From: Candidatus Parcubacteria bacterium
GTDB taxonomy: Bacteria; Patescibacteriota; Minisyncoccia; Phycocordibacterales; JAKFXT01
Reading direction: 5' to 3'
Length of the DNA: 35,831 nucleotides
Assembly: GCA_021414235.1 (NCBI GenBank)
Contig: JAIOOV010000003.1
Coordinates: 103,560 to 139,390, forward strand
Shown: one piece after another, positions 25,790-35,831 of the stretch
Layout: the number at the start of each line of letters is the position of its first letter
Numbering within the stretch: position 1 is the first letter of the stretch
Program-made: the position numbers and the translations under genes
The notes under the pieces: generated by a model
The model's input: the letters and a program-made list of their open reading frames with translations, nothing else
Told to the model about the DNA's origin: nothing
Databases searched by the model: none

Positions 25790-26557
25790 CTAGCCGAAGC
25801 GCTCCGTGCGGATGAGGTGGGGCGCTGCGCCCTCAGCTACCAGATTACGTGAGACCGCCTCCACGAAGCCGGTAGGTCCACAGATGTAGGTCATGGGCAT
25901 CCCTCCGCTCACCTTGGCCAATACCTCTTGCAGCATCTCGCTATCCACGCGCCGCTTATACCCCACCCAGTCCGATGGCGCTTCGTCAGTGAGAGTGATG
26001 ACTACGGAGAGATTCGGATGCTTACCCATGAGCTCTTCCAGCTCCTCTTTATACAAAACCCGATCCAAGCTGCGCGCACTGATGAGAAAGACGATAGGGC
26101 GCCTTGAAGTATCGGTCAGATGATAGTGCCGCAACATGCTCATGAGCGGCACCATGCCGCTTCCTCCCCCGATGAGTACCAAGGGCCCCGGCATCTCGCT
26201 GGTCCAGATGAAATGGCCCCCAATAGGACCGCGAATCTCGATCTTCCCTCCTTCCTTTAGGTTCCAAAGATACGGCGAAACCTCTCCTTTTTCTAAAAAT
26301 TCTACACCGAGCTCGATCACCCCTTCGCTCTCAGGCGCGGAAGCAGCTGAGTAGCTGCGCTCTGCCTGATAGCCAGTAGCAGAGGTAAGCCTGATATCGT
26401 AGTGCTGCCCCGGAAGGTGTTTGACCCACTCCGGCACTTTGAAGACGAGAGACTTCACGTTCCCCGCAGCGAAACCAAAGCGGACCAAGGTTGCAGCTTG
26501 CCAGAGACGGCGCAAATCAGTCGAAGGTGTAGCGTTGTTCTTGCCAGGGGTCTCCAT
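25790..26557 (-). CDS. FAD/NAD(P)H-binding ferredoxin-reductase-type oxidoreductase
   Basis: HLPGQH, RSYS, GEVS, RGPIGGHF, LIGGGSGMVP, YICGP.GFV and RTERFG motifs. Start moved to ATG 26557. Confidence 0.92.
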   Translation of the reverse strand: METPGKNNATPSTDLRRLWQAATLVRFGFAAGNVKSLVFKVPEWVKHLPGQHYDIRLTSATGYQAERSYSAASAPESEGVIELGVEFLEKGEVSPYLWNLKEGGKIEIRGPIGGHFIWTSEMPGPLVLIGGGSGMVPLMSMLRHYHLTDTSRRPIVFLISARSLDRVLYKEELEELMGKHPNLSVVITLTDEAPSDWVGYKRRVDSEMLQEVLAKVSGGMPMTYICGPTGFVEAVSRNLVAEGAAPHLIRTERFG

Positions 26558-27116
26558 AGTTATGATAGCCGCGCACTTCCCAGAATCCGGGAACGTCGCG
26601 ATCAATGAATTCTATCCTCTTAAGCCACTTCGCGCTCTTCCAGAAGTAGAGATGCGGCACCAGAAGGCGCGCCGGGCCCCCGTGTTCTGCCGAGATATCT
26701 TCTCCTTCGTAGCGCACAGCTACCCAGGCCTTCCCATCCCGCACATCCTCTATCGGCAGGTTGGTGCTGTATCCGTCATGAGAGTACGCGATGACATGCG
26801 TCGCACTCTCGCCCACTCCTGCGCGCTTCATCAACTCATCGAGCGAGACGCCCTCCCACTCCGTATCGAACTTGGACCACTTGGTCACACAATGAATATC
26901 CTTCTTCACCTTTTCTATAGGAAGCTTCAGGAATTCTTCCCAGGAGAACGAGAGCTGGTTCTGGACCAAGCCCGTAATCTCGAGCTTCCATCCCTCGGTC
27001 GTGACTTCCGGAGTAGGCCCGAGCGAGAGCACAGGGAAATCGCGCGTCTCGTACTGCCCCGGCGGGAGACGCTTGTCGCGACCTCGCGTCGGTTCGAAAT
27101 CTTCGTTGATGATCAT
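26517..27116 (-). CDS. Sulfite-oxidase-like molybdopterin oxidoreductase (YuiH-type, no signal peptide)
   Basis: RLPPGQY, DIHCVTKWS (Mo-ligand Cys), HGGPARL, YFWKSAKWL, GFWE..GYH..GDPW.EQRY. Confidence 0.93.
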   Translation of the reverse strand: MIINEDFEPTRGRDKRLPPGQYETRDFPVLSLGPTPEVTTEGWKLEITGLVQNQLSFSWEEFLKLPIEKVKKDIHCVTKWSKFDTEWEGVSLDELMKRAGVGESATHVIAYSHDGYSTNLPIEDVRDGKAWVAVRYEGEDISAEHGGPARLLVPHLYFWKSAKWLKRIEFIDRDVPGFWEVRGYHNYGDPWQEQRYTFD

Positions 27117-27700
27117 TAGTCGCTGAAGGTACGGAAGGTAGAGCGGATGGAGACTCCATCCATGCCGATGACGAGCGGGTTCTTCTTAAGGTCGAAATCC
27201 CGGCTTGCGGTATCCCCATGGAGTATCACGTAATAGGGGTGATTCGCCTCGGTAGAGCGGAGGAGGGATATCTCGCCGAGATGCATCCCCTCTTCGAATC
27301 GCGCCGCACCGAGTACGTTGCCAGGGGTACCATCACGATCTTCGTAGACCGCTACCCAGCCAGGCTGCGAGAGTGTGAGCATAGTCACCTCCACAATGGG
27401 GCCCGCCGGCTGATCATTCACTACGATGACATCCCCGTCCACGGAAATCGGTTCCGGCCGATCATCAGACTCGGAAAGCGGCGAGACGTTCGAGCCAGTC
27501 TCGAGAGGCGCGGAGGTGTTTTCATTCTCGACCATAGGGGTCTCCGAGGCTACCTCACGGCTGCAGGCGATGAAGCTCCCTTCCGTGGTACAGCGCACAC
27601 CCATGGCGTAAGCAACGAGGGCCACGAGTCCAAAGACGACTGCCACCGTACCGAATGTGGCAACCGTCTTCTGCGAAACCGTAAGCGAATTCCAGTTCAT
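27116..27700 (-). CDS. Membrane-anchored beta-rich surface protein
   Basis: N-terminal TM helix, a Cys pair, an acidic linker and a beta domain (VVNDQPAG.IVEV..LTLSQPGWVAVYED...VLGA). TAATG overlap with the next gene. Confidence 0.75.
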   Translation of the reverse strand: MNWNSLTVSQKTVATFGTVAVVFGLVALVAYAMGVRCTTEGSFIACSREVASETPMVENENTSAPLETGSNVSPLSESDDRPEPISVDGDVIVVNDQPAGPIVEVTMLTLSQPGWVAVYEDRDGTPGNVLGAARFEEGMHLGEISLLRSTEANHPYYVILHGDTASRDFDLKKNPLVIGMDGVSIRSTFRTFSD

Positions 27701-27732: not shown

Positions 27733-29676
27733 TCAAACCCACGGCTCCCACGGCTCCGGATGAGCATAGATAGCCACCACTTCCCCGCCGAGGATCTCTA
27801 CCGGAGAGGCAGACTGCCGCTCGATCTTGGGGCGGATATCGTGAAGTCCCACGAAGCGGTGCGGCTGATAGCTATCATACGTACCCTGCTGCTCTATGTT
27901 ATTAAAATCATGCGCAAAGTACGGCTCTCCCCAGAACTCATAGATGCGGCGCATCTCCCGCTCCGGGTCCGTGACTAGCTTGTTGTAATCAATGAAGAGG
28001 AGCCGGTCCATGTAGCCGCGCTGCACTGCCTCCTTAGTGGCGTTGTAAGCAATACCGACGGGGCCACCGGGGCCCGCAAAATACTGTGCGCGACTCGCTA
28101 CGTTCGAACCTGCACCCAGCGCTTCATCCGCACCCGTAAGCTCGAGAGGATCCCTATTCCGGAGCTTCTCGAAGGAAGCGAGGATCTCCACCACCGGGCG
28201 CACTGGCACCAGGATCTTGACCTTCCGTCCAAGAAGCTCCTCGAGGAGCGGGATGTGCGAGATCCAGCCACGGCTCTTGTCCACCACTACCGGCTTCCCT
28301 GCAGGAGCATGGTATGAGTTGAGTGCGGAGAGGAGCACGGCGCGCTTGGCTTCCTTGTTAGGAGACTCCATGTGCGAGCCGATCTTGTCCCAGTTGGAAT
28401 AGATACCGGTGAGAATATCGACGAGACCAGAAACCGGCGCACCATGGAGGCGCGGGTTCTGAGAAAGGAGGCTCGTGAGCATGGTAGAGCCGGAGCGCGG
28501 AAGTCCCGCAATGAAGTGGAGCGTATAGGGAGCCGCCACCAGAAGAGAGGAAGAAGGTCCGGGAGCAGCAGGCTCTTTAGGTAGGTAGGAGATATCAGGC
28601 GCGGGCGTGGGAGCAACTGTCGGCATCACCGTCTCAGAGGAAGCGGCACCCACCCGTTCTGAAACCGCTCTGAATACTCTCTGGAGCGGAGCACTCCAAT
28701 CACCGAAGGCTTCCTGTCGGAAGACGCGCACGGATTCGTACCACGGGGAACGCTCGCCAGGCAGCGCCCACATATAGTACGGAAGGATGGGCACGATGAC
28801 CCAGGTCTCCTTGCCCATCCCTGCAGCAAGGTGCGTGATGGAGGTGCAGGAGGTAATGACCAGATCGAGATTAGCAATCGCTCCCGCCGTATCCTCCCAG
28901 GTCTCGAGCTTATCCTTAAGATCAACAACTTCCGGTGGCAACTCGCGCAGATCAGCGTCTCGCTGGAGGCTGTACACTTTCACTCCCGGGATTTGGCTTA
29001 GCGCGATGAGCGGAGAGGGATCAAAGCGACGGTACTGCTCATGCTCAAACTGAGGGTTGCCCGACCAACGGATGCCGATCTTGAGCTCGGGACCGTTGAT
29101 GATCCCCTTCCACTTTTCTGCATAGGCTGGATCAGCGGAGAGATACGACTTACCCGAAAGAGTGCCATAAGTAAGACCAAGGAGTCGCGCTGCGGACATC
29201 GCCGGGACCCAAGAATCGTGTTTGGTATTGCACACATCCTTGTGTTCGATCACCTCTGCTACTCCCTTCACCCGAGAGAAGAGCGGCGCAAGCCCTTTAT
29301 CGCAGGCGACGATGACGCGCGCTCCGCGCTCGGCGAGAAGCGTTGCGAAGCGCACGTTGATCATCTCGTCCCCGAGGCCGCCTTCGCTACGGAGCAGGAT
29401 AGTCTTGCCTGCAGTACCGAGATCCGGATTCCAGATGGGTGTACCGCACGGAAGCGCGGGAGAGCCGAATACTTTTTCAAAGCGTCCGCGATCAAGAAGC
29501 GCCATTCCTCCTTGGAGATCGCCCTGCTGCAGGAGGTGCCAGCCACGGTTGAAGGCTACCCGATTGTTATGCGGCATAGTCTTCTCAAGATGCTGAGCGA
29601 TCTTCCAACCGGTCTCGAAATCCCCGCGCAGATTGGCGCGAAGCTGGGCGACAATGGTCATCTCATGAGGCTCCAT
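27733..29676 (-). CDS. Fusion: short TPR-like helices, GT-B (GT9-like) glycosyltransferase-like domain, Pro-rich linker, PAPS-dependent sulfotransferase
   Basis: LLRSEGGLGDEMINVRF, IGIRWSGNP, WEDTAGAIANLDLVITSCTSITHLAAGMGKETW, WYESVRVFRQ; linker PTVAPTPAP; 5'-PSB loop FIAGLPRSGSTML, VVDKSRGW, ILASFEKL. Start uncertain (TTG 29697, ATG 29676 or ATG 29661). Confidence 0.85.
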   Translation of the reverse strand: MEPHEMTIVAQLRANLRGDFETGWKIAQHLEKTMPHNNRVAFNRGWHLLQQGDLQGGMALLDRGRFEKVFGSPALPCGTPIWNPDLGTAGKTILLRSEGGLGDEMINVRFATLLAERGARVIVACDKGLAPLFSRVKGVAEVIEHKDVCNTKHDSWVPAMSAARLLGLTYGTLSGKSYLSADPAYAEKWKGIINGPELKIGIRWSGNPQFEHEQYRRFDPSPLIALSQIPGVKVYSLQRDADLRELPPEVVDLKDKLETWEDTAGAIANLDLVITSCTSITHLAAGMGKETWVIVPILPYYMWALPGERSPWYESVRVFRQEAFGDWSAPLQRVFRAVSERVGAASSETVMPTVAPTPAPDISYLPKEPAAPGPSSSLLVAAPYTLHFIAGLPRSGSTMLTSLLSQNPRLHGAPVSGLVDILTGIYSNWDKIGSHMESPNKEAKRAVLLSALNSYHAPAGKPVVVDKSRGWISHIPLLEELLGRKVKILVPVRPVVEILASFEKLRNRDPLELTGADEALGAGSNVASRAQYFAGPGGPVGIAYNATKEAVQRGYMDRLLFIDYNKLVTDPEREMRRIYEFWGEPYFAHDFNNIEQQGTYDSYQPHRFVGLHDIRPKIERQSASPVEILGGEVVAIYAHPEPWEPWV

Positions 29677-29747
29677 AGGCAGGAGCAATGGTAACAAAGA
29701 GACCCCCCTCAGGGAACTTGCGGATTTCAGACGTTACGGTATGAAAA

Positions 29748-30140
29748 CTAGCTGCTATTAAGCATCAAAAGATGGGCCCGCCAGGTGGTGCCGCCATCAG
29801 TAGTGGTAAAAGAGAGCACGTCGAGACCGGAGGACGTAAGAGAGGGCGCGGAGCCCGTAAGCCAGGTGGTACCAGAAGGCCAGGCCACCGAGACGGCACC
29901 ACCATTGGTGAGGAGCAGGGTGAGCGTACCAGTCTTCCCCGAGACAGGAGGGTTGGTGATGGAGAGGGTGAGGTTGCCGCTCGCTGTGATCGAAACTACG
30001 TTCCCCAGAGAGAAGTCCATCGCCTGTGAACCCGAGACGGAGCCGCGGGCATTCACTGTAGCGTATTTGACCTTGAGCACCGCGTTGTCGACACGTGCGC
30101 CCCCCAGATCAAATCGGGCAGCAGAGAGTTTGATCGCCAT
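29748..30140 (-). CDS. Small beta-rich protein resembling phage tail-fibre-associated domains
   Basis: TNPPVSG..GTLTLLLTNGG...VAWPSGTTWLTGSAPSLTSSGLDVLSFTTTDGGTTW is a pattern I recognise from phage structural genes. GGAGGT RBS. Confidence 0.65.
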   Translation of the reverse strand: MAIKLSAARFDLGGARVDNAVLKVKYATVNARGSVSGSQAMDFSLGNVVSITASGNLTLSITNPPVSGKTGTLTLLLTNGGAVSVAWPSGTTWLTGSAPSLTSSGLDVLSFTTTDGGTTWRAHLLMLNSS

Positions 30141-30154
30141 TACCTCCGATTATA

Positions 30155-30418
30155 TCAGAACGCGTCCTTATCGATGATAAAAATGGCGTTGCCGTCGCGA
30201 TCCGCGAAGGTGAGGGACTTATTAGTCTCCGTCACCTTGAAATTATTAAAAAGCGCCTCATGGAGCACCTTCTCTCCACTGAAGAGCGAGGTGATGGGAC
30301 CTGCGAACTTACCCAAGGTGAACGCCGCCCCGCCCACAGCCAGGAACTTGAGTACGTTACGGCGAGAGACGTCTATCTTAGACTCGCCTTTGAATAGTGA
30401 AAGAAATTTCTCCTGCAT
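30155..30418 (-). CDS. Small protein with a twin-arginine (Tat) signal
   Basis: SRRNVLK followed by the h-region FLAVGGAAFTLG; short beta-rich mature part. Starts 6 nt after the tatA stop. Confidence 0.8.
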   Translation of the reverse strand: MQEKFLSLFKGESKIDVSRRNVLKFLAVGGAAFTLGKFAGPITSLFSGEKVLHEALFNNFKVTETNKSLTFADRDGNAIFIIDKDAF

Positions 30419-30424
30419 ATGGCT

Positions 30425-30613
30425 CTAGCTCTTGTGGCCAGAAGACTTCTCCGAGTCACGCAGTTCGTCCTCCATCTCCTTCTTCCCCTTCTTGAACTCC
30501 CCGGCCACCTTGCCGAGAGAGCGAGCGAACTCCACCACCTTGCCGCTTCCGAAGAAGAGAAGCGCAAAGACGACGAGGATGACGAGAACTTCAGGTATGC
30601 CTAATCCGAACAT
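30425..30613 (-). CDS. tatA: Twin-arginine translocase TatA
   Basis: MFGLGIPEVLVILVVFALLFFG hinge, then amphipathic helix ARSLGKVAGEFKKG. Confidence 0.93.
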   Translation of the reverse strand: MFGLGIPEVLVILVVFALLFFGSGKVVEFARSLGKVAGEFKKGKKEMEDELRDSEKSSGHKS

Positions 30614-30663
30614 AAAAGTATTACAGCTAGTCTAGCAATTACCCTCCCAGTGTACCACCCACC

Positions 30664-31446
30664 CTATCCCCTACCAACCCGCCTCCTCTCTATGTAATTT
30701 GCCACCAAGAGACCCCCTCCATAGAGCGCCGCCATAGGGAGAGAGAGCATGAGCATGGTGACCCCGCTCCCATCCGGCGTGACGAAGGCGGCAAAGACCA
30801 AGAACCCCAAGAGAGCATGTCGCCACCACGCTCTCCAGAATCCTGCCTGGACCAGGCCGATCCAAGCGAGGAAGACCATCATCACCGGGAGGAGGAACAT
30901 GAGCCCGACCGAGATCATGAGGAAGGCAATAGTAGAGAGGAACTCATCCACCAGGAAGTAGGGCTGTGCGCCGAGTTCCGGAGTAAAGGAGTACAGAATC
31001 TTAAAAGTCGCCGGGATGAGGATATAGTAGGCAAAGGCGGCACCCCCGAGGAAGAGGAGCATCGCGGGCAGCAGTATGACCAAGGCGAAGCGCCGCTCGC
31101 TCTGATGGAGAGCCGGAGAAAGGTAGGCGAGGATGCGATACAGCAGGATCGGAAGAGTGAGAATGAAGGACGCGAGGAGTGCCACCATTACCCGCGTCGC
31201 AAACCCCGCAAAAGGACTGAGCGAGATGAGACGCACTTCCTCGGGAAGGAGATCCTGGCGGATCTGGGCAAATATCTCCACCGCAGCCGGGGTACTCTGG
31301 AGGGAAGGTACCGGAAGGAGCGTGCCCCACATCTGGGTATCCTGGAAACCGAAGGAGAAGAGGAACAGGGCCAAGAATGCAAAAAGGCAGAGCCAGCCGA
31401 TTAACGCCCTAACAAGCAAGGAAAGCTCCCTCAGTACCCCATCCAT
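30664..31446 (-). CDS. tatC: Twin-arginine translocase TatC
   Basis: Six TM helices; LYRILAYLSPALHQSERR loop (Glu retained), FLLPV, WRHA and AAFVTPDG motifs. Adjacent to tatA. Confidence 0.92.
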   Translation of the reverse strand: MDGVLRELSLLVRALIGWLCLFAFLALFLFSFGFQDTQMWGTLLPVPSLQSTPAAVEIFAQIRQDLLPEEVRLISLSPFAGFATRVMVALLASFILTLPILLYRILAYLSPALHQSERRFALVILLPAMLLFLGGAAFAYYILIPATFKILYSFTPELGAQPYFLVDEFLSTIAFLMISVGLMFLLPVMMVFLAWIGLVQAGFWRAWWRHALLGFLVFAAFVTPDGSGVTMLMLSLPMAALYGGGLLVANYIERRRVGRG

Positions 31447-31486
31447 GATGACCGCATACTACTACACTCCCCTCCCTACACCACCC

Positions 31487-34400
31487 CTAGTTTCCCTGGT
31501 CAAAGATCAGGAGGAGGCTTGAAGAAGCATTGTAGAGACCGAGTTCGTTGACCGAGATCTGGCGGAAGCTGAAGCCGTTGCCGAAGGTGACCGCGTTCTC
31601 TACGAAGATGTTACCCGCAGTCGAGGTGGCGGTGAGCGCCGGACAAGAGCCGCCGTCACAGATCCAGAGGTTCTCAGTGACCGCATAGATATCTCCGCCC
31701 GCAGCAGACATGGTCAGGTCGCCCGTACTATCCACCGTGAGCTCAGAGTAGAGAGAGGCGGATTTGGTGAGGCGCAACTGAGGAGCAGCGTTGGCTTCAA
31801 AAACATCGAGTCTGGTAGCAGGGGCGGTAAGACCGAGGCCCACCTTGCCCGCAGGATTGATGATGAAGGAAGTGGCAGTAGAAGAGCCGACTACAAACTG
31901 GTTCGTATCCCCGGCTATTGGGTTCACTGCGAGTTTGGCCCACGGAGTGGTTGTGCCGATACCTACGTGCGCCACATCTACTCCGCTGATACCAGCGTAG
32001 TACATAACGAGCGCCGGAGATGAGCCGATACCGAGGTTGAAGCGAGAGCCAACGGCGGCATAGGCATTCCGTATATTCAAAGTAGTCGCGCCCGAGCGGT
32101 TGTAATCAATATCCGAGTATTCGTTACCCGACGTCTGGCCAAGACGAATGGTGTTACCAGAAGTATTACCAGAATAAATATGGAGGAGTGCGTCAGGCAC
32201 GCCGTTGCCGAGAGCCAGGCCACTACCGATAGCGGTACTTGTAGCAAAGAAGTTATACGCACCCGTATCAGAGGCATAGAACGAGTATGGGGTATTGGTC
32301 TGCGTACCGGTAGTAATATCCCCCACATGTACACCGTACGTATTAGTAATGGTGCCCGCGTTAGACAGGGTATTGACACGCACTCCGTAGGCAGAGGTGA
32401 TAAGATCATTCACCCCCAAGTTGGCTATAGCGGCGCGCACACCTTCCGCAGTAGTCGTGGTCGCACTCTGCAATCCTCCCGAAACACCGTTTGTCGCAGA
32501 ACCAAAAACTCCTAAAAGGGTGGTGGCGGTGGCATTCCCACGATTCAGAGACGTGCCAGTGATTGCAATCGCAGCTGTCAACGCACCAGTTCCGTTATGA
32601 ATGGATTGGAACATACCACCCCGGAGAGAGCCGACAGCAGTCGTATTGGTCGACGGGGTAAACATATCCAATAGAAGAGCCGCATTAGCCGGCGTTGCGG
32701 TGCTGGCAAAATCATTTGACACAGCGATATATTTCGGAGCCTGCAGATACGTAGTATCCGTCAAGGAATAGCTCTCGTAATTCATAACAGAGCGCGTCGT
32801 GCCCTGAGAGTTAATTATCGGCGTAGAAGAGGAGAAGAAGGTGGCCAAAGAAGTGGAAGCAGATACCGTCAGGATGCCACTAGGAGAAGTCGTACCAATA
32901 CCCACCTTCCCTGCGTTATCGATAATAAAGCTGGTTCGGGTCGAAGAACCCACCACAAACTGGTTGGTATCCCCTGCTACTGGGTTTACCGCGAGCTTTG
33001 CCCAGGGAGTGGTGGAGCCAATACCCACAAGACTACCGGAGAGGAAGATGGCGGAGGTGCCAGCCGCCACGTTAGTACCGCTGAAGTACGCCAGTTGACC
33101 AGTCGTACCAGTGAGCGAGGAGCCACCGCCGATACACGATCCATCCAAGCCACGGAAGCAGCCTGCCGCAAGCTGGATGCCGTTTGCGAAGGTGGAGGTG
33201 GCGCCGGTCACATTAAGCGCGGTGGTCTGGATACCTGCGGAGAAGGTGGAAGTAGCTGATGCAACCGAGGTGATTACGCCAGTGTTAGAAATACTAAAGA
33301 GAGAGGTGGTGGCGCCCGCAGTAGAAGAGGCTACGTTAAAGAGAAGAGTGTTGGTGTCCCCATTGAGACCGTGCACAGAGAGCTTGGCTAAAGGAGAAGA
33401 ACTACCCACACCTGTGTTCCCTTGTACGATAAGGCCATTAGTAGGAGGAGTAACAGCAGAGAAGATAGATCCTATAGAAGCACCGGCATACAAATAAAGT
33501 TTGCCCCACGCCGTACCAGAGGCACCCAGGTCATAGCCATTAGTGGTATTAGGAACAAGTGGAGCAGAGAAGCGTAAGTGCGACGGGCCACTAATTAGAA
33601 CCTGGTTCGTATTTGAACCAGCGATGATAAGCGAGGATGTGTTGCCCGGAAAGGCGAAGGTTGCTGTACCTGTATTTGAAATGTTGAACAGTGAAGTAGT
33701 TGCACTTGCAGTAGAGGAGGCAACATCAAATAGAAGCGTATTAGTGTCTCCGTTATTCGCGTGTACCCCAAACTTAGCAAGAGGAGTAGTAGAACCGACG
33801 CCAACATTACCGCCTGTCGGCTGTAATACGAGCGCCAGAGCGGTACCAGCACTATTTACATAAGTAGACTTAAAGTAAGAGTAGGAGGTAGCAGTGGAAC
33901 CAGAATCATAGGTACCCAGATTTGCAGCTGTCCCCGTAAGTCCGTTTGAAATCACCAAACCGCTAGTTATGGAGCCAGACACAGCCGGAATACCACTGCT
34001 GTTTATGTTGAATTTACCAAAGAGAGAGGTGAGGCCAATACCCACCTTACCAGCGTTATCAATCAAGAAACTCGTTGCAGTAGACGACCCGACTACAAAC
34101 TGGTTGGTGTCTCCTGCTACTGGGTTCACTGCGAGTTTGGCCCAAGGAGTGGTGGAACCGATACCGAAAGAACCACTGGCCCTAAGGACCATTTGGTCTG
34201 TTCCCCCTATTCGGAAATTAATTTGCGAGTTTAGGGGTCTGTTGATGTACAAAGTCCCATCGGCAGGGCCGCTATAAAAGTTAGCTTGGGTAGAAGAGAG
34301 AGAGCCGTTTAGAGATATGGCACCATACGTAGTACCGCCACCCCATTCTCCCAGAAGCACGCTTCCAGTATTAGAGCCTTGCACTGCCAATTTTGCAGGG

Positions 34401-35831
34401 GGCGAAGTAGTTCCGATACCCACGTTACCAGCAGAGTCAATGAGGAACGCCGTCGCCGTCGAAGAGCCGACGACAAACTGATTGGTATCTCCCGCTACTG
34501 GGTTCACGGCGAGCTTGGCCCAAGGGGTGGTAGTACCTACACCAAAGAGACCTGTGGCCGCCATATAGTTGAGGCCGTTAGTGTCCGAAGTGCCGAATAT
34601 GCGGAAGTTGCGAGTCTTGGTATCGATATTATTAGTCGAACCATACGCACCTAATTCCAAGTAACTATTAGCGGCGGAAGGAGTACCCAAGAGAAGGCGG
34701 GGGCCGCTCGTGAGAGAGGTGGTGAAGGTATTGGTAGTGTCTCCGACACGTAGTACTCCGTTGTAGATATCGACCAGAGCCCCAGGAGTGCTAGTGCCAA
34801 CGCCGATGTTCCCCACGTTATTGATGACAAAAAGCGAGGTTGTCGCGCTTGCCGTAGAAGAAGCGACCTCAAAAAGCTTGGTATTAGTCTCGCCATTATT
34901 AGCATGAACAGCGAGCTTAGCCCCAGGAGTAGTAGAGCCGATACCCAACCTACCGGTTATCGCATCCCAAAAGAGATTCGAGGAGGTTGCTATAGCCGAG
35001 GAACCATTCCCGAACGGAATGAACCCACTCGCAAGCGAAGCCCAGCCAGTGCCACCATTGGCCACAGGAAGAACCCCGGTCACCTGCGAGGCAAGATTAA
35101 GGACACCTGAGATTGTAGAGAGAGTCGTAGAAGCAACCCACGATGGAATACCATTTGAGAGAGCGAGAACAAAGCCGTTAGTGGAGGCCGCTAATTTTGA
35201 AATTGCGTTAGTGCCGGATCCATAGAAGGTGTCGCCCGTGGTTACTGTAGTAAGTCCTGTACCTCCACTCGTCACACCCAGAGTGCCGCTGATATTCGCA
35301 AGCGTAGTAGTGGACTGCCAAGTTGGTATGCCACCAACAAGAGCCAGCACCTGGCCATTGGTACCAGCAGAAGTAGTAGCAATAGCTCCAGTACCATTAC
35401 CTATCAGAATTGAATTAGCCTGGAAGGCACCCCAGCCAGTACCTCCGTTCGAAGTTGAGAGGATGCCCGCCACTTGGGAAGCGACATTCAGAGTACCGGA
35501 AATCGTTGCCAGAGTCGTAGAAGCAACCCACGATGGAATACCATTTGAGAGAGCGAGAACAAAGCCGTTCGTACTCGAAGCTATCCTACTGAGAGTATTC
35601 GGGGAAGAAGCGTACGTAATATCTCCCGGAGTGTAGGAGGTGAGCCCGGTACCTCCGCTCGTTACGCCCAGCGTCCCGCTAATATTCGCAAGCGTAGTAG
35701 TGGACTGCCAGGTAGGCACTCCCCCGACGAGCGTGAGTACCTGGCCATTAGTACCAGCAGACGTGGTGGCTACCGCACCCGTGCCGTTACCGAGGATGAC
35801 CGTGTTCGCCTGCAGATTTGCCCAGCCCGTG
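31487..35831 (-). CDS. Giant S/T/G/N-rich fibre- or adhesin-like repeat protein (>1448 aa; 5' end outside the window)
   Basis: The frame stays open past the track's start at 35719 to the window edge (TGWANLQANTVILGNGTG...). Recurrent VGIGTTxP motifs and modular repeats. Confidence 0.9.
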   Translation of the reverse strand, partial: TGWANLQANTVILGNGTGAVATTSAGTNGQVLTLVGGVPTWQSTTTLANISGTLGVTSGGTGLTSYTPGDITYASSPNTLSRIASSTNGFVLALSNGIPSWVASTTLATISGTLNVASQVAGILSTSNGGTGWGAFQANSILIGNGTGAIATTSAGTNGQVLALVGGIPTWQSTTTLANISGTLGVTSGGTGLTTVTTGDTFYGSGTNAISKLAASTNGFVLALSNGIPSWVASTTLSTISGVLNLASQVTGVLPVANGGTGWASLASGFIPFGNGSSAIATSSNLFWDAITGRLGIGSTTPGAKLAVHANNGETNTKLFEVASSTASATTSLFVINNVGNIGVGTSTPGALVDIYNGVLRVGDTTNTFTTSLTSGPRLLLGTPSAANSYLELGAYGSTNNIDTKTRNFRIFGTSDTNGLNYMAATGLFGVGTTTPWAKLAVNPVAGDTNQFVVGSSTATAFLIDSAGNVGIGTTSPPAKLAVQGSNTGSVLLGEWGGGTTYGAISLNGSLSSTQANFYSGPADGTLYINRPLNSQINFRIGGTDQMVLRASGSFGIGSTTPWAKLAVNPVAGDTNQFVVGSSTATSFLIDNAGKVGIGLTSLFGKFNINSSGIPAVSGSITSGLVISNGLTGTAANLGTYDSGSTATSYSYFKSTYVNSAGTALALVLQPTGGNVGVGSTTPLAKFGVHANNGDTNTLLFDVASSTASATTSLFNISNTGTATFAFPGNTSSLIIAGSNTNQVLISGPSHLRFSAPLVPNTTNGYDLGASGTAWGKLYLYAGASIGSIFSAVTPPTNGLIVQGNTGVGSSSPLAKLSVHGLNGDTNTLLFNVASSTAGATTSLFSISNTGVITSVASATSTFSAGIQTTALNVTGATSTFANGIQLAAGCFRGLDGSCIGGGSSLTGTTGQLAYFSGTNVAAGTSAIFLSGSLVGIGSTTPWAKLAVNPVAGDTNQFVVGSSTRTSFIIDNAGKVGIGTTSPSGILTVSASTSLATFFSSSTPIINSQGTTRSVMNYESYSLTDTTYLQAPKYIAVSNDFASTATPANAALLLDMFTPSTNTTAVGSLRGGMFQSIHNGTGALTAAIAITGTSLNRGNATATTLLGVFGSATNGVSGGLQSATTTTAEGVRAAIANLGVNDLITSAYGVRVNTLSNAGTITNTYGVHVGDITTGTQTNTPYSFYASDTGAYNFFATSTAIGSGLALGNGVPDALLHIYSGNTSGNTIRLGQTSGNEYSDIDYNRSGATTLNIRNAYAAVGSRFNLGIGSSPALVMYYAGISGVDVAHVGIGTTTPWAKLAVNPIAGDTNQFVVGSSTATSFIINPAGKVGLGLTAPATRLDVFEANAAPQLRLTKSASLYSELTVDSTGDLTMSAAGGDIYAVTENLWICDGGSCPALTATSTAGNIFVENAVTFGNGFSFRQISVNELGLYNASSSLLLIFDQGN
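31830..34545 (-). repeat. Four dispersed ~47-aa modules (GxGxTTPWAKLAVNPxAGDTNQFVVGSSTxTxFxIxxAGxVGIG)
   Basis: Copies at approximately 34400-34543, 34034-34165, 32882-33025 and 31830-31963. Confidence 0.9.
33280..34950 (-). repeat. Three dispersed ~43-aa modules (GSxxPxAKxxVHxxNGxTNTxLFxVASSTAxATTSLFxIxNxG)
   Basis: Copies at approximately 34815-34950, 33670-33800 and 33280-33410. Confidence 0.88.
35041..35831 (-). repeat. Two tandem 390-nt (130-aa) coding repeats plus the start of a third
   Basis: The TGW anchor CCCAGCC recurs at 35821, 35431 and 35041. 35511-35569 equals 35121-35179 (59 nt identical); 35682-35710 equals 35292-35320 (29 nt identical). Confidence 0.92.

Follow-up and report, generated by a model that had tools for sequence, protein, structure and literature searches.

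A conserved Paceibacteria gene cassette of a module-ended fibre, TatAC, a twin-arginine mini-protein and phage-type tip genes, and a possible split-fibre arrangement

Patescibacteria lead a life attached to other cells, and how they construct their attachment structures is little understood. We analysed a stretch of 35,831 nt from Candidatus Parcubacteria bacterium (GCA_021414235.1, contig JAIOOV010000003.1, positions 103,560-139,390, forward strand), referred to throughout as the window. It carries on its minus strand the gene for a giant surface fibre, tatC and tatA for twin-arginine translocation (Tat), a gene for an 87-aa protein with a twin-arginine motif (the RR protein), and a gene for a 130-aa protein resembling the tips of phage tail fibres (the tip protein). 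These genes are the local copy of a conserved five-gene Paceibacteria cassette, which consists of a fibre ending in a particular C-terminal module, tatC, tatA, an RR mini-protein and, as its usual fifth gene, at least one tip gene whose product has no signal sequence. The features are the following:

31487..35830, minus strand: giant fibre gene, an open reading frame (ORF) of more than 1447 aa whose 5' end is cut off at the window edge
31490..31819, minus strand: conserved C-terminal module of the fibre, its last 110 aa (profile matches and AlphaFold2 [AF2] model)
31490..31588, minus strand: terminal beta motif of the fibre, its last 33 codons, FGNGFSFRQISVNELGLYNASSSLLLIFDQGN (hhalign, hidden Markov model [HMM] and pairwise statistics, AF2)
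30664..31446, minus strand: tatC, 260 aa (PF00902 at 154.8 bits; TIGR00945 at 138.2 against a cut-off of 132.7)
30425..30613, minus strand: tatA, 62 aa (PF02416 at 46 bits against a cut-off of 21)
30155..30418, minus strand: RR protein, 87 aa, twin-arginine (PF10518 at 24.6 against 22.7; TIGR01409 at 23 against 16.7)
30281..30370, minus strand: twin-arginine motif SRRNVLK (residues 18-24) and hydrophobic helix (residues 17-46) of the RR protein (AF2 and family alignment)
30158..30268, minus strand: four-strand beta meander (residues 51-83) and four-residue tail of the RR protein (AF2; hhalign)
29748..30140, minus strand: tip protein, 130 aa, signal-less, with an N-terminal tag (MAIKLSAARFDLGGARVDNAVLK) and a phage tail-fibre-tip-like domain (PHROG profiles, tblastn)
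29702..29717, minus strand: weak terminator-like hairpin between the 130-aa gene and a sulfotransferase gene (hairpin scan)

The stop codon of tatA lies 6 nt before the RR start, and 14 nt separate the RR stop from the tip start. TatC and TatA family proteins are both present and adjacent, which is the composition of a minimal TatAC system, and no separate TatB was seen within the window; by the TIGR01411 profile, TatA scores 52.1, slightly below the cut-off of 53.9. The order of module-ended protein, tatC, tatA and RR family member was found in 16 of the 17 lineages examined, across which identity of the RR protein drops to about 30-45%, the fibres measure 355-2249 aa and the genes on either side vary. 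When look-ups were started from RR-family members (25-91% identity), a module-ended gene was found to precede tatC wherever upstream sequence exists, that is, in the window and at loci L001, L003, L010, L011 and L012. When they were started from the module, tatC, tatA and an RR-family gene followed in 10 of 10 loci (P0050, P0060, P0057, P0021 and P0031, and the GTDB genomes L021, L023, L024, L025 and L027), with RR-family matches at E 1e-24 to 1e-33 and, at L023, where the contig ends within the RR gene, a partial match at E 4.5e-4. The RR gene stands beside tatC-tatA in every locus checked and lies immediately 3' of tatA except at L014, where it is placed between tatC and tatA. The single lineage represented by L007-L009 has tat, the RR gene and a tagged protein of 858 aa with no module gene found upstream; in L007, where a module-ended gene upstream of tatC was looked for and not found, the assembly is fragmented. 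As a negative control, an S74-tailed fibre that has only internal half-modules was found to have no tat genes within 6 kb. The initial annotation had suggested that the RR protein and the fibre C-terminus are functionally linked, and both the cassette order and this control bear the suggestion out. In the L007 assembly (1-20267), tatC, the type II secretion ATPase genes and DNA ligase are each split into several short ORFs, which probably reflects frameshift errors.

The RR protein, which ends in ...FNNFKVTETNKSLTFADRDGNAIFIIDKDAF, carries a canonical Tat motif and a Tat signal that scores above the curated Pfam and NCBIfam cut-offs (PF10518, TIGR01409). Its family comprises 112 representatives after clustering at 50% identity, nearly all of which are 67-148 aa long and can be aligned from end to end, with the consensus RRxFLK - GGGAFxLGKxxGP - short linker - FxNFxVxExxKELxxxDxxGxEIxIIDK. 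The twin arginines are conserved at 95-100% in 87 family members and are followed by F/L-L-K. The hydrophobic helix (GGxAFxLGKxxGP) is unusually conserved as well, with G at position 10 (86%), G at position 17 (85%) and K at position 18 (75%) of the RR-anchored alignment, and no conserved A-x-A cleavage site is present in that alignment. AF2 modelled the protein with a mean predicted local distance difference test (pLDDT) value of 78, as a helix at residues 17-46 followed by strands at 51-56, 60-65, 68-73 and 78-83 (pLDDT 81-87). A Foldseek search of the PDB with this model returned no fold match, only generic beta-propeller-blade matches at E > 0.1. PF25471 (TM_PetC) gave a weak match of 21.9 bits against a cut-off of 37.1, with no Rieske domain, and TIGR02811 gave 16.2 against a cut-off of 48.45 in a match limited to residues 12-32. 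A role for the RR protein as a TatB-like component was also considered and was rejected because no TatA/B profile of Pfam or NCBIfam matches it.

The fibre is rich in S, T and G and is built from repeated '...GNVGIGTTSP' beta units, and its relatives are Patescibacteria proteins annotated as 'tail fiber domain-containing'. A relative with 85% identity (L001 2194-8943) has a full length of 2249 aa. No Pfam or NCBIfam family matches the window fibre, Peptidase_S74 (PF13884) included, in agreement with the initial annotation, which had recognised no S74 chaperone tail in it. All 11 of the full-length module fibres begin with a Sec-type signal peptide or signal-anchor (e.g., 'MTLLRTQLHIVSWILALAGVFFVYAHTAHA' at L010), and a conserved RR motif was found in none of them. 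In the lineage of the window, the N-terminus as read from the 85%-identical relative is a cytoplasmic domain of HTH_17-like type with a membrane helix after it.

These N-termini bear directly on the central proposal of the initial annotation, in which the RR protein co-assembles in the cytoplasm with the C-termini of the giant fibre and, by lending its signal, lets the fibre leave by Tat. The conserved adjacency of the fibre gene, tatCA and the RR gene, together with the motif that the two proteins share, is what would be expected of such a pair. The lending of a signal is contradicted, however, by the fibres' own Sec-type signals or anchors, and a chain of 1000-2249 aa that is folded and probably oligomeric would lie far beyond known Tat cargo. 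We consider export of the fibre by this route extremely improbable.

The HTH_17-like domain is an observation of its own. In the L001 fibre it is followed by 'SRRLVRA' and then by the membrane helix, which ends in VARA, and the same type of domain is also found on the Patescibacteria fibres P0022, P0030, P0114 and P0116. A domain of the DNA-binding type is odd on a giant surface fibre. The 'SRRL' before the membrane helix was considered as a Tat motif and was taken as a chance occurrence because it is not conserved in the other HTH_17 fibres.

At its other end the window fibre terminates in ...FGNGFSFRQISVNELGLYNASSSLLLIFDQGN, the last part of a module that occupies the final 95-110 or so residues, at the extreme C-terminus, of at least 17 Patescibacteria proteins. 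It was recovered by hmmsearch in every cassette locus at E 1e-31 to 1e-50. The first half of the module holds a stretch with C-x4-C-P ... ATSTAGNIFVEN, and the terminal three-strand motif makes up the second. AF2 modelled the last 110 aa of the fibre as all-beta with a mean pLDDT of 69; the last three strands (83-89, 92-96 and 102-107) were modelled best, at pLDDT 80-86, and a Foldseek search of the PDB gave no fold match for the module, only generic beta-propeller-blade matches at E > 0.1. The module is absent from cultured phages and from IMG/VR, which argues against a recent phage origin. Fibres chosen without reference to tat have only its first half (C-x4-C-P ... GN..VE), which also occurs internally, and only the terminal 35 or so residues of the module are specific to Tat-linked fibres. 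Two fibre relatives, P0013 and P0033, have a divergent full module in an internal position, followed by a conserved C-terminal domain of about 118 aa ('GTARVIQTKQKIWSVTVAST...YGYWTRE'); this domain, which has no relation to the tip protein, could be a further alternative for the end piece.

Many homologous Patescibacteria fibres carry PF13884, and where these end in Peptidase_S74 the cassette fibres end in the module instead. This replacement raises the question of whether the RR protein might act as an external assembly template, with a pre-folded oligomer of RR modules being exported by Tat and nucleating trimerisation of the fibre from its C-terminus in the role of an S74 chaperone. Tat is a route for folded or oligomeric cargo, which would suit such a template, but the RR oligomer is hypothetical, and the template would leave the tagged, signal-less tip proteins unexplained. 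We regard this explanation as very unlikely.

The initial annotation also held that the RR protein and the fibre end in the same motif. The C-terminal sequences that it quoted for the two proteins are exact, and its six identities, as well as the stop 3-4 residues after the Asp in both chains, were confirmed from the ORFs. For the window's own pair, however, the similarity is at chance level: BLASTP of the RR protein against the fibre gave nothing at the C-termini, its sole match being to an internal fibre repeat whose profile shows no match to the RR module, and the best local Smith-Waterman score is 19, below the shuffle mean of 20.9. At the level of the families, the similarity is real. When 89 RR proteins were aligned with 15-17 fibre ends by hhalign, RR positions 58-85 were placed onto fibre positions 81-109, in the register proposed at the outset, with scores of 22.3-23.8, P values from 1.4e-3 to 8.8e-4 and probabilities of 17-23%. 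The part of the RR protein that is aligned with the terminal motif of the fibre is the last three strands of its meander. None of 200 column shuffles attained the real score (mean 9.8, maximum 19.7), reversed profiles scored 7.8 and 10.6, and beta-rich decoy profiles made from the internal fibre repeat and from the tip-protein family scored 7.4 and 8.4. Among cross-family pairs of ends, 646 of 2159 reached a score of at least 30, compared with a mean of about 28 in shuffles. Other members are far more similar to each other than the window pair, such as RR 'KELGVYDSSGDKILVVD' and fibre 'TELGVYNGSGQLIIIFE', and a strikingly similar pair is formed by 'LYFKNFKITESKREIGVYDSSGDQILIIDKE' and 'IYFGNGFKIDQVTGTTTELGVYNGSGQLIIIFEEE'. 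As a check, the initial annotation had proposed profile searches in both directions. An HMM of the last 33 aa of the fibre gave a positive score for 45 of 127 RR proteins, compared with 5.6 when shuffled and 2 when reversed. An HMM of the RR module found no individually significant match in 190 kb of fibre sequence. Eight of the 13 top matches of the latter fall at module C-termini and, as mutual homologues, count as one observation.

Since the window pair is at chance level, the hhalign probability is below 25% and neither AF2 model has a fold match, the RR protein could instead be an unrelated small substrate, that is, the cargo of a dedicated TatAC with a role of its own, in which case the motif would be convergent and the synteny would result from co-regulation of surface genes. 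Operons in which TatAC is dedicated to one substrate are well known, an example being phoD-tatAd-tatCd of B. subtilis. We think this unlikely, because the family-level similarity is far above all of the controls (shuffled, reversed and beta-rich decoy), it is precisely the segment restricted to Tat-linked fibres that is similar to the RR protein, and the cassette has been kept in 16 of 17 lineages despite differing flanks.

The gene 3' of the RR gene supplies the remaining member of the cassette. The 130-aa tip protein matches the 'tail fiber protein' families phrog_7760 and phrog_9017 at E 1.1e-11 and 1.3e-11, and in a tblastn search 95% of the query was aligned with a phage tail fibre of 1168 aa, at its C-terminal end. 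Its first 26 or so residues form a tag, M-x-I/V-K/R-I/L-S-x-x-R-x-x-L/M..., which is also present on the gene 3' of the RR gene in 11 other lineages (12 with that of the window; loci L001, L008, L011, L012, L013, L014, L015, L016, L018, L021, L024, L025 and L027). Neither the 130-aa protein of the window nor any of 11 counterparts with the tag has a hydrophobic N-terminus. The tagged genes differ greatly in size. At L008 the product is 858 aa, and at L014 (10019-14424) two tandem RCC1/WD40/fn3 proteins of about 1.3 kaa (thousand amino acids) each start with the tag and a tip-like domain (MKISGSRIDLENGRIDNAVLKNYGETLV), which suggests that the tag marks interchangeable large proteins. In the fibres P0022, P0027 and P0030, an untagged tip domain (E 1e-13 to 5e-19) comes directly after a half-module within one chain. 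In the cassette fibres, the terminal motif of about 35 aa stands at the position of the fused tip, and the tip is encoded separately, with a tag. Such a pattern of fusion and fission would be expected of a motif and a tag that stand in for a covalent link.

The tip protein may also take the place that the initial annotation had given to the fibre. In the Tat hitchhikers of E. coli (HybO/HybC, DmsA/DmsB and PaoABC), one partner carries the twin-arginine signal, and its signal-less partner or partners cross together with it once they have folded (Rodrigue et al. 1999; PMC4273604). The fibre, which has an export signal of its own, does not fit the part of the signal-less partner, whereas the 130-aa tip protein does. 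The tip protein, which the initial annotation had not linked to the system, is a better candidate for piggy-back cargo than the fibre.

Our preferred and most economical reading, to which we assign a probability of roughly 0.45, is a tentative one: a split fibre, whose shaft would be exported by Sec and whose folded tip would pass through TatAC on an RR protein that displays the docking motif of the shaft. The shaft would be exported or anchored by Sec by means of its own N-terminal signal. The tip, made up of a phage tail-fibre-tip domain and the tag and devoid of a signal, would fold in the cytoplasm. The RR mini-protein would combine a Tat signal and helix with a four-strand meander that mimics the final three strands of the shaft, and the minimal TatAC encoded beside this 87-aa protein would have it as its dedicated substrate. 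The tag of the tip would dock on the RR meander, the complex would cross TatAC by the hitchhiker route and, outside the cell, the tip would end up on the equivalent motif at the C-terminus of the shaft. A broader claim, that Paceibacteria build a two-route fibre with a Sec shaft and interchangeable phage-derived tips delivered by a private TatAC, with a tag of about 26 residues and a hand-over from carrier to shaft outside the cell, is possible but in our judgement doubtful; if true, it would put Tat hitchhiking to a new use and give these episymbiotic bacteria a modular organelle for attachment to their hosts.

Several points weigh against the split fibre. The element shared by the RR protein and the fibre end is about 16-28 residues long, a length at which common descent and convergence on a beta-hairpin shape are indistinguishable, and the hhalign probability between the two is 17-23%. 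All of the physical contacts, the Tat hitchhiking and the hand-over to the shaft, as well as any cleavage of the RR signal, are inferred. A permanent membrane anchor and a transient signal are equally compatible with the strongly conserved hydrophobic helix. Several of the tagged proteins reach a very large size of 858-1331 aa and, if they are oligomeric, would be demanding cargo for Tat, and L003, a close relative of the window, has no tip gene adjoining the RR gene.

The permanent anchor deserves separate attention, since it leads to a different account of the cassette in which the RR protein serves as a membrane dock. The initial annotation had likewise allowed for an RR protein that anchors the fibre if uncleaved. 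It would be inserted by Tat as an uncleaved, Rieske-like signal-anchor with its N-terminus inside and its C-terminus outside, and its meander would pair directly with the terminal strands of the Sec-exported fibre, tethering the fibre C-terminus to the cell after cleavage of the signal peptide. Consistent with this are the 30-residue helix of the AF2 model (17-46) with its conserved G, K and GP positions and no A-x-A site, the weak resemblance to TM_PetC, and the motif common to the RR protein and the fibre end. The signal peptides of most cassette fibres, moreover, look cleavable, and these fibres have no anchor besides. However, the fibre of the window lineage already has an N-terminal anchor, and an external tail of 40 aa needs no Tat, so the dock leaves unexplained why such reduced genomes keep a private TatAC. 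It also leaves unexplained the signal-less tagged tip genes and the fusion pattern. We find the dock rather improbable, and it is with the split fibre in mind that we compare the cassette with known systems.

In relation to the Tat hitchhikers, the carrier would here be a beta module of about 40 aa without a cofactor, and the cargo would be phage-type tips with an interchangeable N-terminal tag rather than redox subunits, with a proposed hand-over to a Sec-exported partner. As in phoD-tatAd-tatCd of B. subtilis, a two-component TatA/TatC is encoded beside its own cargo, but here the cargo is 87 aa long and the cassette also holds a Sec-exported module fibre and signal-less tagged genes. The RR protein is similar to Tat-inserted signal- or tail-anchored proteins such as Rieske/PetC (PMC10924467) in that the twin-arginine motif is followed by a long, possibly membrane-retained helix, and differs from them in having no Rieske domain or cofactor. 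It is also similar to TIGR02811, 'formate dehydrogenase region TAT target', in being very small, in having little beyond a Tat signal and in lying beside a presumed partner, although the match to that family is confined to the signal region and lies below the cut-off.

Phage tail fibres end in a tip domain or in an S74 intramolecular chaperone, or have their distal part made of separate proteins. The cassette shares with them a tip homologous to their ends, as well as conserved attachment ends with variable distal parts, and among related fibres of Patescibacteria the end is formed by S74 or by a fused tip. It differs in that the terminal module is absent from phage collections and in that, in a cellular genome, a mini-protein linked to Tat would span the split. 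An extreme C-terminal module on variable surface proteins, together with a dedicated membrane machine, is likewise characteristic of LPXTG/sortase, PEP-CTERM/exosortase and the C-terminal domain of the type IX secretion system; here, however, a transmembrane tail is missing from the module, TatAC with the RR mini-protein takes the place of the machine, and no processing enzyme is evident. Surveys of the candidate phyla radiation (CPR) note only the presence of TatA and TatC (PMC9166423). We found no published description of the cassette, papers on CPR secretion do not mention it, and a 2026 review of Tat evolution mentions neither the cassette nor these bacteria. If the split fibre is correct, the cassette would explain the retention of Tat in such reduced genomes, and Tat hitchhiking would gain a non-redox, structural use. 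The docking motif of about 35 aa and the tag of about 26 aa would form a short, portable pair that could move folded proteins across the membrane and onto a fibre.

Downstream of the tip gene, the hairpin at 29702-29717 is a suggestive candidate for the 3' boundary of the cassette or operon, although the number of such sites is not above that in shuffles. It is followed on the minus strand by a gene (27733-29697) for a 654-aa protein with a C-terminal sulfotransferase domain, which has the same position 3' of the cassette in the close relatives L001 and L003; this gene is outside the cassette core because it is missing from distant cassettes. Further along the same strand (26517-27700), a DUF7282 membrane protein overlaps by stop and start codon with a signal-less molybdopterin oxidoreductase domain of 199 aa. 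The molybdenum enzyme, which lies near tat, carries no Tat signal and is probably cytoplasmic, and in relatives a FAD/NAD-binding reductase adjoins it.

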